From a virus (taxonomy: Duplodnaviria; Heunggongvirae; Uroviricota; Caudoviricetes): a DNA stretch of 39,448 nt. A program made the translations under genes and the position numbers. How positions within the stretch are numbered: the stretch's first letter is position 1; the number at the start of each line of letters is the position of its first letter. The stretch lies in the IMG/VR virus record IMGVR_UViG_2585427754_000011; one strand, given 5' to 3'. Positions 21,937 through 30,619 of the stretch are shown piece after piece. The notes beneath the pieces are model-generated. The model was not told the DNA's origin. It saw only the letters and a program-made list of their open reading frames with translations, and searched no databases.

Positions 21937-22330
21937 AGCGGTGCCTTATGTCCGCAATAACCCGGACAAACTGCATCTGTTTGTGGATAACGGTTCGCTA
22001 GTTGCTACGGGGGCCAGCTCCATGTCATGGGAGTACCGTTACACCCTGAACGTGGTGATTGAGGATTTCAGCGGCGACCAGAATCTGTTGATGGCCCCGG
22101 TTTTGCTGTGGCTGCGAGATAACCAGCCCGATGCAATCAATAACCCGGTGTTACGGGAAAAGTTATTCACCTTTGAAGTGGATATTTTGCGCAACGATGT
22201 CTGTGATATCAGCCTTAACCTGCAACTGACGGAACGTGTGCTGGTCAGCACTGACGGCACTGTGTCCAGCGTTGAAGCTGTAGCGGAACCCGATGAACCT
22301 GAAGAAGTGTGGACGGTGAAACGTGGCTGA
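21899..22330 (+). CDS. R: Tail completion protein R
   Basis: KPQSLRHAL...FVDNGS matches the P2 gpR N-terminus as recalled; GTG at 21899 after AGGAG. Confidence 0.75.
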   Translation: MNKPQSLRHALNKAVPYVRNNPDKLHLFVDNGSLVATGASSMSWEYRYTLNVVIEDFSGDQNLLMAPVLLWLRDNQPDAINNPVLREKLFTFEVDILRNDVCDISLNLQLTERVLVSTDGTVSSVEAVAEPDEPEEVWTVKRG

Positions 22331-22766
22331 ACTGCAGAAGGTGGACGACTGGCTGAGTGCTTTGCTGGCGAATCTGGAACCAGCCGCAAGAAGCCGCATG
22401 ATGCGCCAGCTGGCGCAGGAACTTCGGCGGACACAGCAGCAGAATATCAGGATGCAGCGCAACCCTGACGGCAGCAGCTATGAACCGCGACGGGTAACAG
22501 CACGCAGTAAAAAAGGCCGTATCAAACGTCAGATGTTTGCAAAGCTGCGCACCACAAAATACCTGAAAACTGCCGCCAGTGCCGATTCTGCCAGCGTGCA
22601 GTTTGAAGGCAAGGTACAGCGCATTGCCCGTGTTCATCACTACGGCCTGCGTGATCGCGTCAGTCGAAATGGACCAGAAGTGCGATATGCTGAGCGGCAG
22701 TTACTTGGCATAGATTCTAAAATAACCGCCGTTATTCGTAATAAGCTATTTGAGTTTATTAAATAA
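22323..22766 (+). CDS. S: Tail completion protein S (C-terminal tail encoded by AT-rich DNA)
   Basis: Position and size of gpS; the last ~18 codons switch abruptly to AT-rich sequence. Confidence 0.75.
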   Translation: MAELQKVDDWLSALLANLEPAARSRMMRQLAQELRRTQQQNIRMQRNPDGSSYEPRRVTARSKKGRIKRQMFAKLRTTKYLKTAASADSASVQFEGKVQRIARVHHYGLRDRVSRNGPEVRYAERQLLGIDSKITAVIRNKLFEFIK

Positions 22767-22772
22767 AAACTC

Positions 22773-24569
22773 TCAGGATTGTGATAAATTTATTAAACAT
22801 TGACAAAAATATTTAATGTCGTCACATATTTCATCTTTATTCATGTGTTCCAGAACTTCATCTCGAGTAATTGAGAAGTTATGTTTTAGTGAATTTTCGC
22901 CACTAATGAAAATTTCTTTTCCATGTGCGTCTTTTAAGGCTGCAGCTATATCTGTAGATGTTATCGAATCAGGGATAGCTAACGCATGCCTATCTCTAAA
23001 GAAGCTACGTATATCTTCTTCAGATGTCTCTGCAGCTCTTGCGATGGCTGATATATCTAGAAAGTAATTTTCAATGTGTCTGCGACGCCATTTCATGGCT
23101 AAAAAATCACTATCGCCGTGATTAGTTGATTTATCTTTAAGATCTGCTCCTACAGAATGGTCGCTATCATCATCACGATCGCGCATGCTAATGGCTTTTA
23201 AGTCAGGGATTTCATTTTTTAATTGTTTGTATAATTGAAACCTTTCTGAAGATTTTCCAGTCCAAAGCCATGTGACAATATTTTTTGGCCATGTTAGTTC
23301 TAACTTTTTAAATATTTTTTTTAGGAATCTTTCATCGCTAACACCTTCAACAATCAATAATCTTTTGTCTTCGGTAAGCTTATGGATTTTGGGGCTAAAG
23401 ATCGTGCCAATTCCACTTAATAGACCTATTTTTTCATTATCAGAACCAAGGTATTTCCCTCTGGAATTTGATAGTGCCAAAATTTTCTGTGGTTCATAAG
23501 CCCTGATTAACTCAGTAGAGTGTGTTGCCAATAGGACCTGCTTTCCTTTTTTAATTGTTATCTCTTCTAAACGTTCAGTTAGATTTTTCTGTAATTGTGT
23601 ATGTAGGTGAGCATCTGGTTCATCTAGTAGAATGACATTAAATTCTTCTGATAAGGCCAATGTATATACACTTAACCATTGAAGAAAACCGCTTCCTTCA
23701 ACCATAATATCTCTAGCATTGAAGTTTTTGTGTTTTTTAAATTGATAACCATTGACAACGCCAGCGACACATTCAATTTTTAAGTAACTATGATATTGTT
23801 CATTAAATGGAGTTACTTCAAGTTTTAAAGAAAAAAGGTCAAAGAGTGTTTTTTGTAATATTTCCCAAGGGTCTGTTTCCCTTAATAAATTAAGGTCTTT
23901 ATTGGCGATTTTGTTTCGCCCTTCTTTTAACCTCCGGCGTTTGTTTTGATTCTCTAGGTGAATATCGTAAATAGAATTTCTGATTACTCCACCAGAAAGC
24001 CCCTGACCGATTAGTCGATTCCTCATTGCTGGGCTAAGACGGCTTTCTCGGTCTGTAATACCTGCAAATGGAGGGAGATAAGCTATCTGGGGTATATTCT
24101 CATTATTTGGAGAACCATCGTCATTCTGTATTTCTTGTAAAGCAAGGTTGCTAGATGTATTTTTTATAAATAATCTATCATTTGCTAATGATAAACCGAT
24201 CTCTAAAAACTTCTCATTTTTTAAACTATCATCCCAAAAAAGCTTTATCTTTAGAGTATAACCATCATCTTCTGTTTGTTTTTGAGATTTTAAATTGGTC
24301 CATAAGTGGCTTAAAGACGGTATAAACATCGGCGTGAAATCGACAATGCCTAGTCCGACACCTTGATTTGTCGCATTTTCAGTCCAACTCACTCTTCCTT
24401 TTTCAATTTCTAAAAGAGTCTTACAGAATTGCCACGTTGCCATTGCTTGCAGTAACGATGATTTACCGGAATTGTTCCCGCCGACCAGGAGGCTTAATTC
24501 GTCATTTAATTGTATTGTTGAGTTTTTATATTTTTTAAATTTCTTAAGCTCTACTTTTTTTATGTACAT
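22773..24569 (-). CDS. OLD-family nuclease (ABC-type ATPase + Toprim), 598 aa
   Basis: Walker A GGNNSGKSS, Walker B ILLDEPDAHLH, H-loop LLATHS, then Toprim-like LLIVEGVSDE and RDRDDD. Convergent with S, sharing a terminator hairpin; strongly AT-rich. Confidence 0.75.
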   Translation of the reverse strand: MYIKKVELKKFKKYKNSTIQLNDELSLLVGGNNSGKSSLLQAMATWQFCKTLLEIEKGRVSWTENATNQGVGLGIVDFTPMFIPSLSHLWTNLKSQKQTEDDGYTLKIKLFWDDSLKNEKFLEIGLSLANDRLFIKNTSSNLALQEIQNDDGSPNNENIPQIAYLPPFAGITDRESRLSPAMRNRLIGQGLSGGVIRNSIYDIHLENQNKRRRLKEGRNKIANKDLNLLRETDPWEILQKTLFDLFSLKLEVTPFNEQYHSYLKIECVAGVVNGYQFKKHKNFNARDIMVEGSGFLQWLSVYTLALSEEFNVILLDEPDAHLHTQLQKNLTERLEEITIKKGKQVLLATHSTELIRAYEPQKILALSNSRGKYLGSDNEKIGLLSGIGTIFSPKIHKLTEDKRLLIVEGVSDERFLKKIFKKLELTWPKNIVTWLWTGKSSERFQLYKQLKNEIPDLKAISMRDRDDDSDHSVGADLKDKSTNHGDSDFLAMKWRRRHIENYFLDISAIARAAETSEEDIRSFFRDRHALAIPDSITSTDIAAALKDAHGKEIFISGENSLKHNFSITRDEVLEHMNKDEICDDIKYFCQCLINLSQS

Positions 24570-24725: not shown

Positions 24726-25304
24726 ATGAACGCACAATTAACCGAAATCATGCGCCTTATCACCAACCTGATCCGCACTGGGGTAGTCACCGAAGTGGAC
24801 CGGGAGAACTGGCTTTGCCGGGTGAAAACGGGCGACCTTGAAACCAACTGGATCAGCTGGCTGACGCTGCGTGCCGGGAATGCCCGCACATGGTGGCGAC
24901 CATCGGAAGGTGAACAGGTGGTGCTGCTGAGTCTGGGCGGAAATCTTGAAACCGCCTTTGCGCTGCCCGCCATCTATTCGAATCAGTTCGCACCACCGTC
25001 GACGTCGGCGGACGCCTGCGTGACAGAACATCCTGACGGTGGCTGGTTTGAATACGAACCCGCCACCGGGCGCTGGTATGTCAGAGGCATCAAATCAATG
25101 GTCATTGAGGCCGCTGACAACATCACCCTGAAAACCAGTGAGTTTGTGCTGGAGGCTGACCACACGCGTATTAACAGCGAAGTGGTGATCAATGGTGGCG
25201 TTACCCAGGGCGGCGGTGCAATGAGTTCTAACGGAATTGTGGTTGATGCACATCAGCATACTGGCGTCCTGAAAGGCGGCGACACAACCGGAGGCCCGGT
25301 ATGA
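24726..25304 (+). CDS. V: Baseplate spike protein V
   Basis: 192-aa ORF in the gpV position, first gene of the baseplate block. Confidence 0.8.
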   Translation: MNAQLTEIMRLITNLIRTGVVTEVDRENWLCRVKTGDLETNWISWLTLRAGNARTWWRPSEGEQVVLLSLGGNLETAFALPAIYSNQFAPPSTSADACVTEHPDGGWFEYEPATGRWYVRGIKSMVIEAADNITLKTSEFVLEADHTRINSEVVINGGVTQGGGAMSSNGIVVDAHQHTGVLKGGDTTGGPV

Positions 25305-25660: not shown

Positions 25661-26555
25661 CCTTTCGCAGTTGCCTGCGCCGCAGATTGTGGATGTGCCG
25701 GACTTTGAGACGCTGCTTACCGAACGCAAGGCAGAATTTGTGGCGCTTCATCCGAAAGATGAGCAGGAAGCAGTGATCCGCACGCTGGAACTGGAATCTG
25801 AACCCGTCACCAAATTGTTGCAGGAGAATGCTTACCGTGAGTTGCTTCTGCGCCAGCGCATTAACGAAGCCGCGCATGCTGTGATGGTGGCTTACGCGAT
25901 GGGCGGCGATCTTGACCAGCTCGCTGCCAACTACAACGTGAAACGCCTGACGGTGACGCCTGCTGATAATGACGCTGTGCCACCCGTTGCGGCTGTGATG
26001 GAAAGCGATGAAGCGTTACGCCTGCGTGTGCCTGCGGCTTTTGAAGGGCTTTCGGTTGCGGGGCCAACCGCAGCTTATGAATTTCATGCCCGAAGCGCCG
26101 ACGGTCGGGTGGCGGATGCCAGTGCAACCAGCCCGGCACCTGCAGAGGTGGTACTGACTGTCCTTAGCCGCGAAGGCGACGGAACAGCAGAAAAAGACCT
26201 GCTGGATGTGGTGGAGAACGCCCTGAACAGTGAGAACGTCCGCCCGGTGGCTGACCGTCTGACGGTTCGCAGCGCAGAAATCATACCGTACCGCGTGGAA
26301 GCCACCATTTTTCTCTATCCGGGGCCGGAAGCAGAGCCGGTAATGGCAGCGGCAAAAGCCAGCCTGCAGAAGTACATCGCCAGTCAGACGCGGCTTGGTC
26401 GGGATATTCGCCGTAGCGCCATCTTTGCCGCCCTGCATGTTGAGGGTGTGCAGCGTGTGGAGCTGGCTTCGCCGCTGGCGGATGTGGTTTTGAACAAAAC
26501 GCAGGCGGCATCATGTACGGAGTGGAGCGTGACCAACGGGGGAACGGATGAATAG
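25647..26555 (+). CDS. J: Baseplate protein J
   Basis: ATG at 25647 with AGGAGCAGAGA RBS (ORF-track start at 25608 is upstream). Confidence 0.85.
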   Translation: MAVIDLSQLPAPQIVDVPDFETLLTERKAEFVALHPKDEQEAVIRTLELESEPVTKLLQENAYRELLLRQRINEAAHAVMVAYAMGGDLDQLAANYNVKRLTVTPADNDAVPPVAAVMESDEALRLRVPAAFEGLSVAGPTAAYEFHARSADGRVADASATSPAPAEVVLTVLSREGDGTAEKDLLDVVENALNSENVRPVADRLTVRSAEIIPYRVEATIFLYPGPEAEPVMAAAKASLQKYIASQTRLGRDIRRSAIFAALHVEGVQRVELASPLADVVLNKTQAASCTEWSVTNGGTDE

Positions 26556-27153
26556 TCTGCTGCCATCGGGGTCAACTTCACTGGAGCGCCGACTGGCGCA
26601 GACCTGTAGCGGGATTTCTGATCTGCAGGTGCCGCTGCGTGACTTGTGGAATCCGGCTACCTGCCCGGTCAGCTTCCTGCCTTATCTCGCCTGGGCGTTC
26701 TCTGTGGATCGCTGGGACGAAGGCTGGACAGAAAGCGTCAAGCGCCAGGTGGTGAAGGATGCTTTTTATATTCATCAGCATAAAGGGACCACCAGTGCCG
26801 TGCGGCGGGTGGTGGAGCCGTTCGGCTTTCTGATCCGCATTATTGAGTGGTGGCAGACCGGAGAGGCACCGGGCACGTTTCGTCTGGATATCGGCGTGCA
26901 GGACCAGGGCATCACTGAAGATACCTATCTGGAACTTGAGCGGCTGATAAGCGATGCCAAACCATGTAGCCGTCACATGATCGGCATGTCCATCAATCTG
27001 CAGACCAGCGGTCCGCATTGGGTGGGGGCCGCCAGCTATCTTGGCGAAGAAATCACGATCTATCCGTATATCAACGAAACAATTATTTCCGGCGGCACCG
27101 CGCATGAAGGTGGGGCGGTCCATGTTATTGACACAATGAGAGTGAATCCATGA
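26548..27153 (+). CDS. I: Baseplate protein I
   Basis: 201-aa ORF between J and the tail fibre gene. Confidence 0.75.
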   Translation: MNSLLPSGSTSLERRLAQTCSGISDLQVPLRDLWNPATCPVSFLPYLAWAFSVDRWDEGWTESVKRQVVKDAFYIHQHKGTTSAVRRVVEPFGFLIRIIEWWQTGEAPGTFRLDIGVQDQGITEDTYLELERLISDAKPCSRHMIGMSINLQTSGPHWVGAASYLGEEITIYPYINETIISGGTAHEGGAVHVIDTMRVNP

Positions 27154-28880
27154 GCACAAAATTTTATACCCTGCTGACGGATATTGGCGCGGCGAAACTT
27201 GCCAGCGCCGCCGCGCTCGGTGTGCCTTTAAAAATTACCCATATGGCGGTCGGCGATGGCGGCGGAACATTGCCAACGCCGGACGCAAAGCAGACAGCAT
27301 TGGTAAATGAGAAACGCCGGGCTGCGCTGAATATGCTCTATATCGACCCGCAGAACAGCAGCCAGATTATTGCCGAACAGGTGATCCCAGAAAACGAGGG
27401 CGGTTGGTGGATACGTGAAGTGGGCCTGTTTGATGAGTCCGGGGCATTGATTGCCGTGGGCAACTGCCCGGAAAGCTATAAGCCACAACTGGCTGAAGGC
27501 AGCGGGCGCACCCAGACCGTGCGCATGGTGCTGATTACCAGCAGTACGGACAATATCACCCTGAAAATCGACCCTGCTGTCGTGCTGGCAACCCGTCATT
27601 ATGTAGATCAACAAATAGAAATTCATGAGCAATCGCGCCGCCATCCTTCTGCGTCTTTGACAGAAAAGGGATTTGTACGTCTGTATAGCGGTGTGGAAAG
27701 CAATGATGAAACAGTCGCTGCAACGCCAAAAGCAGTGAAAATAGCGATGGATAATGCCAGCGCCAGACTGGCAAAAGACCGCAATGGTTCTGATATTCCC
27801 AATCCGGCACTGTTTGTTCAGAATCTGGGATTGAAAACGACTGTTGATAAAGCTGCATCAGCGATTCAGCCAGGAGATTATGGAATTGGCCTGGCTTATC
27901 TGAAAACCATGGGAACCAAATCGCAATTTTTTGCTTATGGTACAGCTGTCGGCTATCCAGAAGTGCCAACACATGGTGCTGGTTTCCAGGCCTGTTACAA
28001 CGACAATCGACGTGCACAGATTTATGTCGCTAATGATGGCAAGATGTACTGTCGATTCAGCATGTTATCGAAAATTGCCGATGATGAAACACCGTGGAAT
28101 CAGGTGTTCACCAGTGCACATTATCCAGAAGCATCAGTGAGTGTTAAAGGAATGGTGCAACTGGGGAACGATGTAAACAGCGTGTCAGAAAATGTTGCGG
28201 CGACATTGAAAGCGGTAAAAATTGCGATGGACAACGCCAGCGCGAGACTGGCAAAGGACCGCAATGGTGCTGATATTCCTGACCCGACTTTGTTTATTCA
28301 GAATCTGGGACTTAAACCGACGGTTGATAAGGCTGAAAGTGCTCTGCAACAGGGAGCATACGGAATCGGTAGCAATAATAACTACGAAATGGGTGAGGTT
28401 TCACAGTTTCTTGCATATTCAGGTAATGCAGATGAAGTGCCATCGAATGGTGCAGGTTTTCAGGCTGCGTATAACAAGAACAGACGCGCGCAGATTTTCA
28501 TCACCGGAGCAGGGGAAATGTATCACCGTTTCAGCGGCTCTGATACGGTTAAAGACAATACAACACTATGGCGTCGGGGTGTTTGTGAAGATGAATTTTC
28601 ATTTGGCAGCAATTATCACCGAATAACTGGCGGTGTGCTGAAGCAGTTTTTTAACAGTTATTTTTCCGGGGCAACTGGTGTGGTGAATAAAGAGTATCAG
28701 GTGAATTTTCCGACACCATTTGCCCGTCAGTGCTGGTACGTGATCCCCGTTTTCCGTTCGTCACACGGTGGGAGTGTTGAGGGTGTCGCCATTACAGCTA
28801 TTACTGCAACTGGCTTTACTCTGAGCATCACCGGAGATAACGGTGGATGGAATATTGGGTTTATTGCGGAGGGGGTCTGA
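27150..28880 (+). CDS. H: Tail fibre protein H, with an internal tandem duplication
   Basis: Conserved N-terminus MSTKFYTLLTDIGAAKLA...; two ~150-aa repeat units in the C-terminal half. Confidence 0.8.
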   Translation: MSTKFYTLLTDIGAAKLASAAALGVPLKITHMAVGDGGGTLPTPDAKQTALVNEKRRAALNMLYIDPQNSSQIIAEQVIPENEGGWWIREVGLFDESGALIAVGNCPESYKPQLAEGSGRTQTVRMVLITSSTDNITLKIDPAVVLATRHYVDQQIEIHEQSRRHPSASLTEKGFVRLYSGVESNDETVAATPKAVKIAMDNASARLAKDRNGSDIPNPALFVQNLGLKTTVDKAASAIQPGDYGIGLAYLKTMGTKSQFFAYGTAVGYPEVPTHGAGFQACYNDNRRAQIYVANDGKMYCRFSMLSKIADDETPWNQVFTSAHYPEASVSVKGMVQLGNDVNSVSENVAATLKAVKIAMDNASARLAKDRNGADIPDPTLFIQNLGLKPTVDKAESALQQGAYGIGSNNNYEMGEVSQFLAYSGNADEVPSNGAGFQAAYNKNRRAQIFITGAGEMYHRFSGSDTVKDNTTLWRRGVCEDEFSFGSNYHRITGGVLKQFFNSYFSGATGVVNKEYQVNFPTPFARQCWYVIPVFRSSHGGSVEGVAITAITATGFTLSITGDNGGWNIGFIAEGV

Positions 28881-29314
28881 TGAGTTATTTTTACAGTCCA
28901 TCAAGAAATGCATTTTATAACAGTGAACTGAAATCTGATTATTACGATGCTCTCGATGCGTGGCCGGATGACTGTATTGAGGTAAGTGATGCAGTCTATC
29001 AGGAGTTTTATCTTGGTTATCGGGAAGGGTACAAAATGGTTGCAGGCACTGATAACCAGCCATCATGGGAAGAACGTCCACCATTGACCCATGAGGAACA
29101 GGTGGAACAGGCAGAAATGATGAAACAGATGCGCATTAATGAGGCTAACAACCTGATTAATGAAAAACAATGGCCATCAAAATTACAGCTTGGCAGGCTG
29201 AACGAAATGGAGACAACCAGATTTAATGCGATGCTGGATTATCTTGAGTTACTTGAAAATATTAATGTAAGTGATGCCCCGGATATAGTCTGGCCTTTAT
29301 CACCAGAAGTCTGA
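28880..29314 (+). CDS. G: Tail fibre assembly chaperone G
   Basis: ATG overlaps the H stop (TGATG). Confidence 0.7.
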   Translation: MSYFYSPSRNAFYNSELKSDYYDALDAWPDDCIEVSDAVYQEFYLGYREGYKMVAGTDNQPSWEERPPLTHEEQVEQAEMMKQMRINEANNLINEKQWPSKLQLGRLNEMETTRFNAMLDYLELLENINVSDAPDIVWPLSPEV

Positions 29315-29328
29315 ATACATCCCCGCGT

Positions 29329-29348
29329 CTGCGGGGATTCCTGTATCC
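29329..29348 (+). terminator. Hairpin after G
   Basis: atccccgc-gtct-gcggggat. Confidence 0.45.
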
Positions 29349-29353
29349 GCCGT

Positions 29354-29371
29354 TGTGCCATTTTTCATACA
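29354..29371. promoter_or_regulatory. Late-promoter activator site (TGT-N12-ACA) upstream of FI
   Basis: TGT gccatttttcat ACA, 76-93 bp upstream of the FI ATG. Confidence 0.45.
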
Positions 29372-29446
29372 AACCACATAACGTGCATCCTGCTCGTATC
29401 AACCAGAACATAGGCAGACCCCCTCTACTACCGGAGAGACTGCCTT

Positions 29447-30619
29447 ATGGCTCAGGATTACCACCACGGGGTGCGCGTTGTTGAAGTCAACGAAGGCACC
29501 CGATCCATTACCACGGTGAGCACCGCCATCGTGGGTATGGTCTGCACGGGCGATGATGCCGATGCAAAAATGTTTCCTCTTAATAAACCCGTGCTGATCA
29601 CTGATGTGCTGACTGCCAGCGGTAAAGCGGGTGAGTCCGGTACGCTGGCCCGTTCGCTGGACGCCATCGCTGACCAGGCAAAACCCGTGACCGTTGTTGT
29701 GCGTGTGCCGCAGGGTGAAACGGAAGAAGAAACCACGACCAATATCATCGGCGCAGTGACTGCTGAAGGTAAAAAAACAGGCATGAAAGCCCTGTTATCT
29801 GCCCAGTCACAGCTCGGCGTTAAACCGCGCATTCTCGGCGTGCCAGGTCACGACACGAAGGCGGTAGCTACTGAGTTGCTGAGCGTGGCGCAAAGCCTGC
29901 GTGGGTTTGCTTACCTGTCAGCGTATGGTTGCAAGACGGTGCAGGAAGCAATCACTTACCGTGAAAACTTCAGTCAGCGTGAAGGAATGCTGATCTGGCC
30001 TGACTTTACTGGCTGGGACACGGTGCTGAATGCCGAAGCAACGGCATATGCCACCGCCCGTGCGCTTGGTCTGCGCGCCAAAATTGACGAGCAGACCGGA
30101 TGGCACAAAAGCCTGTCCAACGTGGGCGTGAACGGTGTCACCGGAATTTCTGCAGATGTGTTCTGGGATCTGCAGGACCCGGCAACTGATGCGGGACTGC
30201 TTAACCAGAACGACGTCACCACGCTTGTGCGCAAGGATGGTTTCCGCTTCTGGGGTTCCCGCTGTCTGAGCGATGATCCGCTTTTTGCTTTCGAAAACTA
30301 CACTCGCACGGCGCAGGTGCTGACGGACACAATGGCAGAAGCGCACATGTGGGCGGTGGACAAACCGCTGAACCCGTCGCTGGCGCGCGACATTATCGAG
30401 GGTATCCGCGCCAAAATGCGCAGCCTGGTAAGTCAGGGGTATCTCATTGGTGGTGATTGCTGGCTGGACGAGTCGGTGAACGACAAAGACACCCTGAAAG
30501 CCGGAAAACTCACCATCGATTACGACTACACGCCAGTGCCGCCACTTGAAAACCTGATGCTGCGTCAGCGCATCACCGATCAGTACCTGGTGAATTTCTC
30601 CAGCCAGGTCAGCGCGTAA
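29447..30619 (+). CDS. FI: Tail sheath protein FI
   Basis: 390 aa, position after G. Confidence 0.9.

Follow-up and report, generated by a model that had tools for sequence, protein, structure and literature searches.

In the tail fibres of the R-type pyocins, two tandem Knob domains of similar fold are described as duplicates that 'evolved from a single ancestor', and Knob2 and the lectin foot as the variable and putative binding regions (Buth et al. 2018, PMC6116203). A 'Pyocin knob' pseudo-domain (D7) has been described as mobile, being found in several structural classes of fibres and in varying copy numbers within modular fibres (bioRxiv 10.1101/2024.10.28.620165). In the S and S-type fibres of phages Mu and P1, the distal part is varied by site-specific inversion (with Gin and Cin, respectively), and a shared block ('AATAKAVKIAMDNANARLAKDRNGADIPNKPLFIQNLGL'; structures 5YVQ and 8JU3) marks the junction of the constant and variable parts of the fibre. 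The fibre protein gpH of phage P2 has two adjacent PF03406 repeats; it is not known to have stem-knob units or a lectin tip.

The DNA analysed here is a P2-like prophage of Escherichia coli, and the whole stretch of 39,448 nt is referred to below as the window. The product of its tail fibre gene would be laid out as collar, stem, first knob, stem, second knob and lectin-like tip, and it contains the tandem internal repeat that had been noticed in a preliminary description of this DNA. The repeat is real, and it is probably a genuine and ancient repetition, in tandem and in frame, of a whole structural module of a P2-type fibre.

A homologue of gene H in a P2-like gene order

The fibre gene (27150..28880, on the plus strand, as are all features given below) is an open reading frame encoding 576 aa, with the stop codon TGA at 28878-28880. 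In its product, a Pfam search identified the PF12571 collar and PF03406 repeats, while a PHROGs search assigned it to phrog_988, 'tail protein' (1.7e-163). The gene is flanked by the Tail_P2_I baseplate gene gpI (26548..27153) and by a Caudo_TAP tail fibre assembly gene (Pfam), the latter being directly followed by the sheath gene, with the tube gene also located downstream. The same order is repeated in three related loci discussed below (L001-L003). The two domain types, together with the gpI and assembly-gene neighbours, justify naming the gene a homologue of H. This gene order (gpI, H, Tfa, sheath), the PF12571 collar and the PF03406 repeats are all shared with P2 gpH and the fibres of Peduovirus. 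The exact gene was present in 47 of the 5426 complete E. coli genomes.

The N-terminal tail-collar (baseplate-attachment) domain occupies aa 1-149 (27150..27596), which correspond to positions 1-149 of the 150 positions of the PF12571 Phage_tail_fib model (218 bits, E 6.9e-65). It is the sole part of gene H with at least 95% DNA identity to Klebsiella and Escherichia P2-like phages: the first 459 nt of the gene are 96–97% identical to their counterparts in these phages, whereas beyond approximately nt 460 it is unrelated, at the megablast level, to the fibres of the phage collection.

Downstream of gene H lies the gene of a tail fibre assembly chaperone (gpG/Tfa homologue, 28880..29314; PF02413 Caudo_TAP, 6.5e-26). 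Its open reading frame as listed begins at 28847 (28847-29314), and an ATG at 28880 overlaps the stop codon of H (TGATG); this ATG, and not position 28847, is likely the start. A Tfa of 143–145 aa, encoded next to H, is also found in L001-L003. No tRNA genes were found in the window. Mu and P1 vary the distal part of their fibres by inversion, whereas the window contains no invertase and no significant inverted repeat: a search of positions 26500-30500 returned just three weak pairs of 15–22 nt with 73–87% complementarity. An invertible segment of the Mu Gin or P1 Cin type was therefore rejected, given the lack of an invertase in the window and of meaningful inverted repeats around H and Tfa.

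Extent and anatomy of the repeat

Local self-alignment of the protein (BLOSUM62) paired aa 162-318 with aa 322-477 at a score of 437, compared with a mean of 33.7 (SD 5.4, maximum 57) for 200 shuffled controls, so that the likeness is significant and extends beyond a short motif. Both this and a MAFFT alignment place the tandem repeat far above chance, and the two peptides quoted in the preliminary description lie within the open reading frame. In the MAFFT alignment, the units are 59% identical in protein over 160 columns, with a single indel of 2 residues (2 codons). Unit 1 (aa 162-321; 27633..28112), delimited by the self-alignments, and unit 2 (aa 322-479; 28113..28586), delimited by these and by the 480-nt register, are each composed of a Phage_fiber_2 head, a stem core and a knob. 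A unit profile aligns with the 576-aa representative at residues 162-321. At the nucleotide level, a repeat search revealed in-frame similarity of 27651-27889 to 28131-28369 (71% identity, with a spacing of 480 nt).

These results refine the initial picture in several respects. Two units of approximately 150 aa had been placed at 27690-28560; they do exist, but they are 160 and 158 aa long and the proposed span clips both ends. The segment 27714-27890 had been paired with 28195-28370, whereas the +480 register gives 28194-28370 as its partner. The identity of these two segments had been called high, and they are indeed similar, but only at the level of 76% (135/177), the longest exact word shared by the units being 14 nt. 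The divergence of the copies was too great for Tandem Repeats Finder, which reported no array in the gene. A megablast search with the DNA of stem 2 returned the same 66 places in complete genomes as the other parts of the repeat. Stem 1 of its own gene was not among the hits, confirming that no exact word of 28 nt or longer is common to the two units.

A short, widespread Phage_fiber_2 or 'ARLAKDRNG' motif recurs in many fibres, and the resemblance of the two units might be nothing but such a recurrence, with no real repeat behind it. A motif block that occurs in hundreds of fibre proteins does, in fact, make up the initial 80 aa of each unit, and of the 1231 hits obtained with the unit profile, in a search covering 1.84 billion representative proteins, most span positions 1-80 only. 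The likeness nevertheless continues through the knob. The two knobs are 48% identical over approximately 80 aa and share GAGFQ, RRAQI and Y.RFS motifs as well as a conserved Trp, and a knob-only HMM picks up both copies with E values of 1e-48 to 1e-52. The self-alignment, the MAFFT alignment and the knob-only HMM together refute the short-motif reading, to which we give practically no credence. The tandem repeat therefore comprises head, stem and knob.

The first approximately 80 aa of each unit consist of the Phage_fiber_2 repeat followed by an 'AAT.KAVKIAMDNASARLAKDRNG.DIP.P.LF.QNLGLK.TVDKA' block. PF03406 matched the protein with 101.6 bits (cutoff of 22) in two stretches, the best of them at aa 169-209 (copy 1, 27654..27776); the second (copy 2) is set by the +160-aa register at aa 329-369 (28134..28256). 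Stem core 1 (aa 189-240; 27714..27869) contains the 'AATPKAVKIAMDNASARLAKDRNGSDIP..LFVQNLGLK..VDKA' block that is common with the Mu S fibre, and the extent of stem core 2 (aa 349-400; 28194..28349) follows from the unit alignment and the DNA comparison. Residues 327-403 are also matched by phrog_1833 and phrog_36614. In phmmer searches, the stem block, i.e. the first half of each unit, matched residues 111-191 of the Mu tail fibre S (8ju3, 5yvq) with E ~1e-23. Mu S possesses a single copy of this block and a different distal domain, whereas in gene H the block is present twice.

Knob 1 (aa 241-321; 27870..28112) and knob 2 (aa 401-479; 28350..28586), the latter located with the knob HMM and a structure model, showed no detectable sequence homology to characterised knobs. 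The knob profile had no match in Pfam and no credible match among PDB sequences (the best, with E 1.3, was an unrelated dynein chain), while a profile of eight knobs retrieved two fragments only in a word-indexed protein search. An AlphaFold2 model of aa 227-329 (m4f4251c73981) predicts knob 1 to be a small beta domain with a five-stranded antiparallel sheet (core pLDDT of 86–92); this model and the one covering knob 2 (mce21cea24c0d) are of monomers, while the protein must be a trimer. In Foldseek, the PDB entries that ranked first to third for the knob 1 model were the R1 and R2 pyocin fibres 6cl5, 6ct8 and 6cl6 (probability of 0.94–0.99 and TMq of 0.45–0.48, with weak E values of 0.1–0.3). 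Among predicted viral structures (BFVD), its confident matches were all tail fibres (best E 2.7e-4). Knob 2 was modelled with low confidence (pLDDT of 45–61); its strands follow one another in the order seen in knob 1. With its five strands, the knob 1 model fits the antiparallel sheet of five or six strands, linked by loops, by which the pyocin-type Knob domain is defined (PMC6116203), a definition that also comprises trimeric assembly with the sheets buried at the three-fold interface. Structure prediction of the repeat unit, proposed at the outset as a check, thus yielded a knob-like beta domain whose best matches are the knobs of R-type pyocin fibres, and the approximately 80-aa domain is, as judged from its modelled fold, a knob of pyocin type in an enterobacterial P2-like fibre.

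The C-terminal tip (aa ~485-576; 28602..28877) is modelled as a confident, lectin-like beta-sandwich (pLDDT of 75–93). The PF21882 Gp53-like_C domain was a near miss here (23.2 bits, under the gathering cutoff of 24.9; E 9.9e-5), and nothing was found in PDB when the C-terminal 96 aa were searched by sequence. In Foldseek, the model of knob 2 plus tip matched pyocin fibres (E ~5e-6), and the tip alone matched the R1 pyocin foot 6cxb (E 1.6e-4, TMt 0.59, rmsd 3.8), H-type lectins (Helix pomatia agglutinin and a discoidin domain) and the C-terminal domains of tailspikes. The structural matches and the near-threshold PF21882 match are in agreement. By analogy with these proteins, the tip is probably the primary receptor-binding domain.

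For both models, the best structural matches were the R-type pyocin fibres of Pseudomonas aeruginosa (R1, PALES_06171; R2, PA0620; structures 6CL5, 6CL6, 6CT8 and 6CXB). Gene H and the R-type pyocins have in common a P2-like contractile-tail fibre, two knobs of similar fold, a C-terminal lectin-like beta-sandwich and a chaperone gene downstream. They differ in three respects. First, the pyocin knobs are directly adjacent (separated by one helix-plus-turn), whereas those of gene H are spaced apart, because the repeated unit includes the 80-aa stem. Second, the pyocin knobs are 20% identical, compared with 48% in gene H. Third, in the pyocins an iron-containing shaft of 70 aa lies between Knob2 and the foot, while the gene H tip comes almost directly after knob 2. 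The sequence identity between gene H and the pyocin fibres is 13–20%, with no detectable sequence homology. The knob domain was additionally found in otherwise unrelated fibres, once each in proteins P0146, P0227 and P0254 and twice, back-to-back, in P0251. This scattered occurrence fits the mobility of D7, if the gene H knob is its equivalent, an equation that is drawn only from the Foldseek matches to pyocin fibres.

Age and origin of the two units

In windows of 20 codons, the DNA identity of the two units reaches a peak of 0.80–0.83 at codons 192-231, and elsewhere it is 0.41–0.60. Comparison of unit 1 with unit 2 by the Nei-Gojobori method gave, for the stem core, a pS of 0.60 (dS ~1.2) and a dN of only 0.11, and for the knobs a pS of 0.74–0.75, i.e. 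saturation. With synonymous divergence so high and non-synonymous divergence so low, the similarity of the stems stems from constraint on the protein, and the DNA likeness confined to this region is best ascribed to purifying selection rather than to recency or gene conversion. These values, with the longest exact word of 14 nt, contradict a recent duplication whose copies have been kept alike in DNA.

How the two units came to stand in tandem was approached through the knobs. As bootstrap support was too poor in an NJ tree of the knobs, pairwise identities were used instead, in a comparison of approximately 10 sequences. Knob 2 is 67–70% identical to the knobs of P0009 and P0012, 58% to that of P0146 and 56% to that of P0254, but only 48% identical to knob 1 of its own protein. 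Since knob 2 is nearer to these foreign knobs than to knob 1, a joining of two modules that had diverged beforehand is no less likely than a duplication in place. Most probably, two fibre genes that were already distinct underwent an out-of-register exchange at a conserved motif, which would have joined the two units.

The competing scenario is an ancient duplication in place by unequal crossing-over, after which the copies diverged and the knob-2 type spread horizontally. It would agree well with the collinearity of the units throughout (one 2-codon indel and an exact 480-nt register), and stems 1 and 2 are marginally nearer to each other (85% amino acid identity) than either is to any unrelated fibre stem (79–83%). 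For the R pyocin fibres, too, a duplication has been proposed to explain their tandem knobs (PMC6116203). However, it has to account for the greater likeness of knob 2 to the knobs of other fibres (56–70%) and for two further loci. One of these, L003 (P0009), represents a diverged lineage whose natural state is a single unit; its knob is of the knob-2 type, and its tip is of the kind found in gene H. In the other, L004 (P0005), the sequence is approximately 98% identical to gene H over 27300-28213 and then switches abruptly to a P2-H-like distal part, the breakpoint (28214-28220) being located within the second Phage_fiber_2 motif. The proximal block, composed of the collar, unit 1 and the second Phage_fiber_2 head, is therefore also found joined to an unrelated distal part. 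The L004 contig, from GCA_023876705.1, is 1167 nt long and could be a chimeric assembly. The two-unit distal part, in turn, was found behind at least two different collars. L003, L004 and the different collars of the two-unit distal part indicate that the pieces of the fibre travel independently. Duplication in place is a possible, though less likely, origin, and the joining of two already diverged modules is preferred here.

Copy number, recombination products and meaning for the fibre

The suggestion that such repeats can drive recombinational variation in fibre length and host range was followed up, as regards length, by comparing length and copy number across relatives. Two natural alleles of 416 aa (576 minus 160), L001 (P0007) and L002 (P0006), were identified; their read sets are SRR36148184 and SRR14117170. 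Two-unit alleles that share the collar of L001 align with it over its full length at 98.5% identity, in two pieces spanning 1731 nt, and L001 equals a two-unit allele minus 480 bp. Its last unit-1-specific site is at 27816 and its first unit-2-specific site at 27831, so the crossover interval is the 14-nt word TTCAGAATCTGGGA (27817..27830, equal to 28297-28310), and no exact match of the two units is longer. In L002, the last unit-1 site is at 27789 and the first unit-2 site at 27800, and the crossover interval is a 10-nt stretch (27790..27799, equal to 28270-28279). With the direction of change among the alleles inferred by parsimony, these sequences identify L001 and L002 as the apparent products of two independent and precise 480-bp deletions through crossover in the conserved stem. 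Assembly collapse was considered as a source of the 416-aa forms and judged unlikely: the crossover points differ, and the exact words shared by the units are of at most 14 nt, which is shorter than the usual assembly k-mer.

Deletions of this kind are rare. Both units were present in all 66 copies (66/66) found in 48 of the 5426 complete E. coli genomes, and knob 1, stem 2, and knob 2 plus tip were each found at the same 66 places in the same 48 genomes, while the one-unit form of 1251 nt occurred in no complete E. coli genome. The exact two-unit 576-aa protein is recorded on 265 contigs, compared with 1, 1 and 2 contigs for the one-unit forms, and no protein with three full units was found among the 1.84 billion representative proteins. 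Length variation by recombination is therefore borne out by two natural 480-bp deletions, and the comparison across relatives did uncover rare one-unit alleles; as to its frequency, the copy number is almost invariant. The two-unit fibre is a stable, selected form.

It follows that a recent tandem duplication which actively drives length variation, with the repeats recombining often, is very improbable. Its support comes from the two one-unit alleles, the crossovers of which lie inside the repeats. It is largely refuted by synonymous sites that are near saturation, by the near-invariant copy number in genomes and contigs alike, and by the longest exact word of 14 nt. From work of Shen and Huang in 1986, roughly 23–27 bp are reportedly needed for efficient RecA-dependent exchange, and the 14-nt word is below this length. 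Exchange between the units is infrequent because the homology between them is short and imperfect.

In the proposed working of the fibre, the protein would form a homotrimer, in which the collar docks on the baseplate and the stems build a thin shaft. The knobs would be globular nodes nucleating the folding of the trimer, and they may bind surface saccharides or add a second binding site. The tip, presumably matured by Tfa, whose translation would be coupled to that of H through the TGATG overlap, would make the primary receptor contact. Receptor binding by the knobs and by the tip is assigned by analogy and would parallel that of the described fibres; the extra stem-knob unit would make the fibre longer and might provide a second site of binding, a role put forward for Knob2 and the foot in the R pyocins.

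The stem with its Phage_fiber_2 motif probably also acts as a recombination site of low efficiency, because the motif is conserved both within gene H and across many fibre genes. Crossover between its own two copies would delete exactly one unit, as in the two natural one-unit alleles, and crossover with other fibre genes would swap the distal part, as in the one natural allele of this kind (L004). A more far-reaching reading is that the stem-knob unit is a self-contained cassette, the copy number of which is toggled by microhomology-mediated recombination in the stem, and that one- and two-knob fibres are functionally distinct, in reach or in possessing a second glycan-binding site, and are sampled by prophages as a slow, non-programmed host-range switch. 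We regard this as improbable, if conceivable.

No current concept is changed by these results, which represent the ordinary and well-documented modular building and reshuffling of phage fibres. The precise module boundaries (the edges of the units, the crossover words and the swap point at 28214-28220) could guide the engineering of P2 and tailocin fibres with respect to length and specificity. For the biology of these phages, gene H offers a natural example, at nucleotide resolution, of how conserved fibre motifs may serve as junctions for the gain, loss and swap of receptor-binding modules.

Proximal and distal ends of the fibre gene

The first 459 nt of the tail fibre gene H (27150-27608), which encode the collar, share 96-97% identity with P2-like phages of Klebsiella and Escherichia, while the part of H beyond these 459 nt has no match to these sequenced phages at megablast level. 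The abrupt loss of similarity to phages at this point identifies the end of the collar as another recombination boundary.

At the distal end, the open reading frame (ORF) of the tail fibre assembly chaperone gene Tfa, as listed (28847-29314, + strand), starts 34 nt within H. Translation of Tfa likely begins at position 28880, where an ATG overlaps the stop codon of H (TGATG) and is preceded by GGAGGGGG. This overlap, together with GGAGGGGG ahead of the ATG, suggests that H and Tfa are translationally coupled. In the related loci L001-L003, Tfa is 143-145 aa long.

Database proteins related to the fibre module

The database protein P0122 (491 aa) is a two-unit allele of the fibre, in which a frame shift falls within knob 2. 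Its C-terminal end corresponds to the translation of an alternative-frame ORF located inside H of the window (28222-28626, + strand, +1 frame). In the other isolate from which P0122 comes, either the fibre has been pseudogenised or the sequence contains an error. Another matched protein, P0251 (503 aa), is fibre-like but otherwise unrelated. It carries two knob domains side by side, without an intervening stem, an arrangement nearer than that of H to the Knob1-Knob2 layout of R-type pyocin fibres; these knobs are followed by a C-terminus which looks like the intramolecular-chaperone type.

A probable defence gene within the tail operon

A 598-aa ORF (22773-24569, - strand) is flanked by tail-completion gene S (22323-22766) on one side and by baseplate spike gene V (24726-25304) on the other, and lies on the strand opposite to both. 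It contains an AAA_15/AAA_21 ATPase domain and a sub-threshold match to DUF3226 (24.1 bits versus a cutoff of 27), and its best PADLOC matches are AriAB/AriA (PARIS) and GajA (Gabija), with E-values of 1e-24 to 1e-22. This ORF is probably an OLD-family-like anti-phage defence gene, carried as cargo within the tail operon.

Fibre copies across E. coli genomes

The two-unit fibre was found in 66 places in 48 complete E. coli genomes (matches H51-H160), with a maximum of three in any one genome. In some strains there are thus several P2-like prophages that share the distal part of the fibre, whereas their N-terminal collars differ at least in part.
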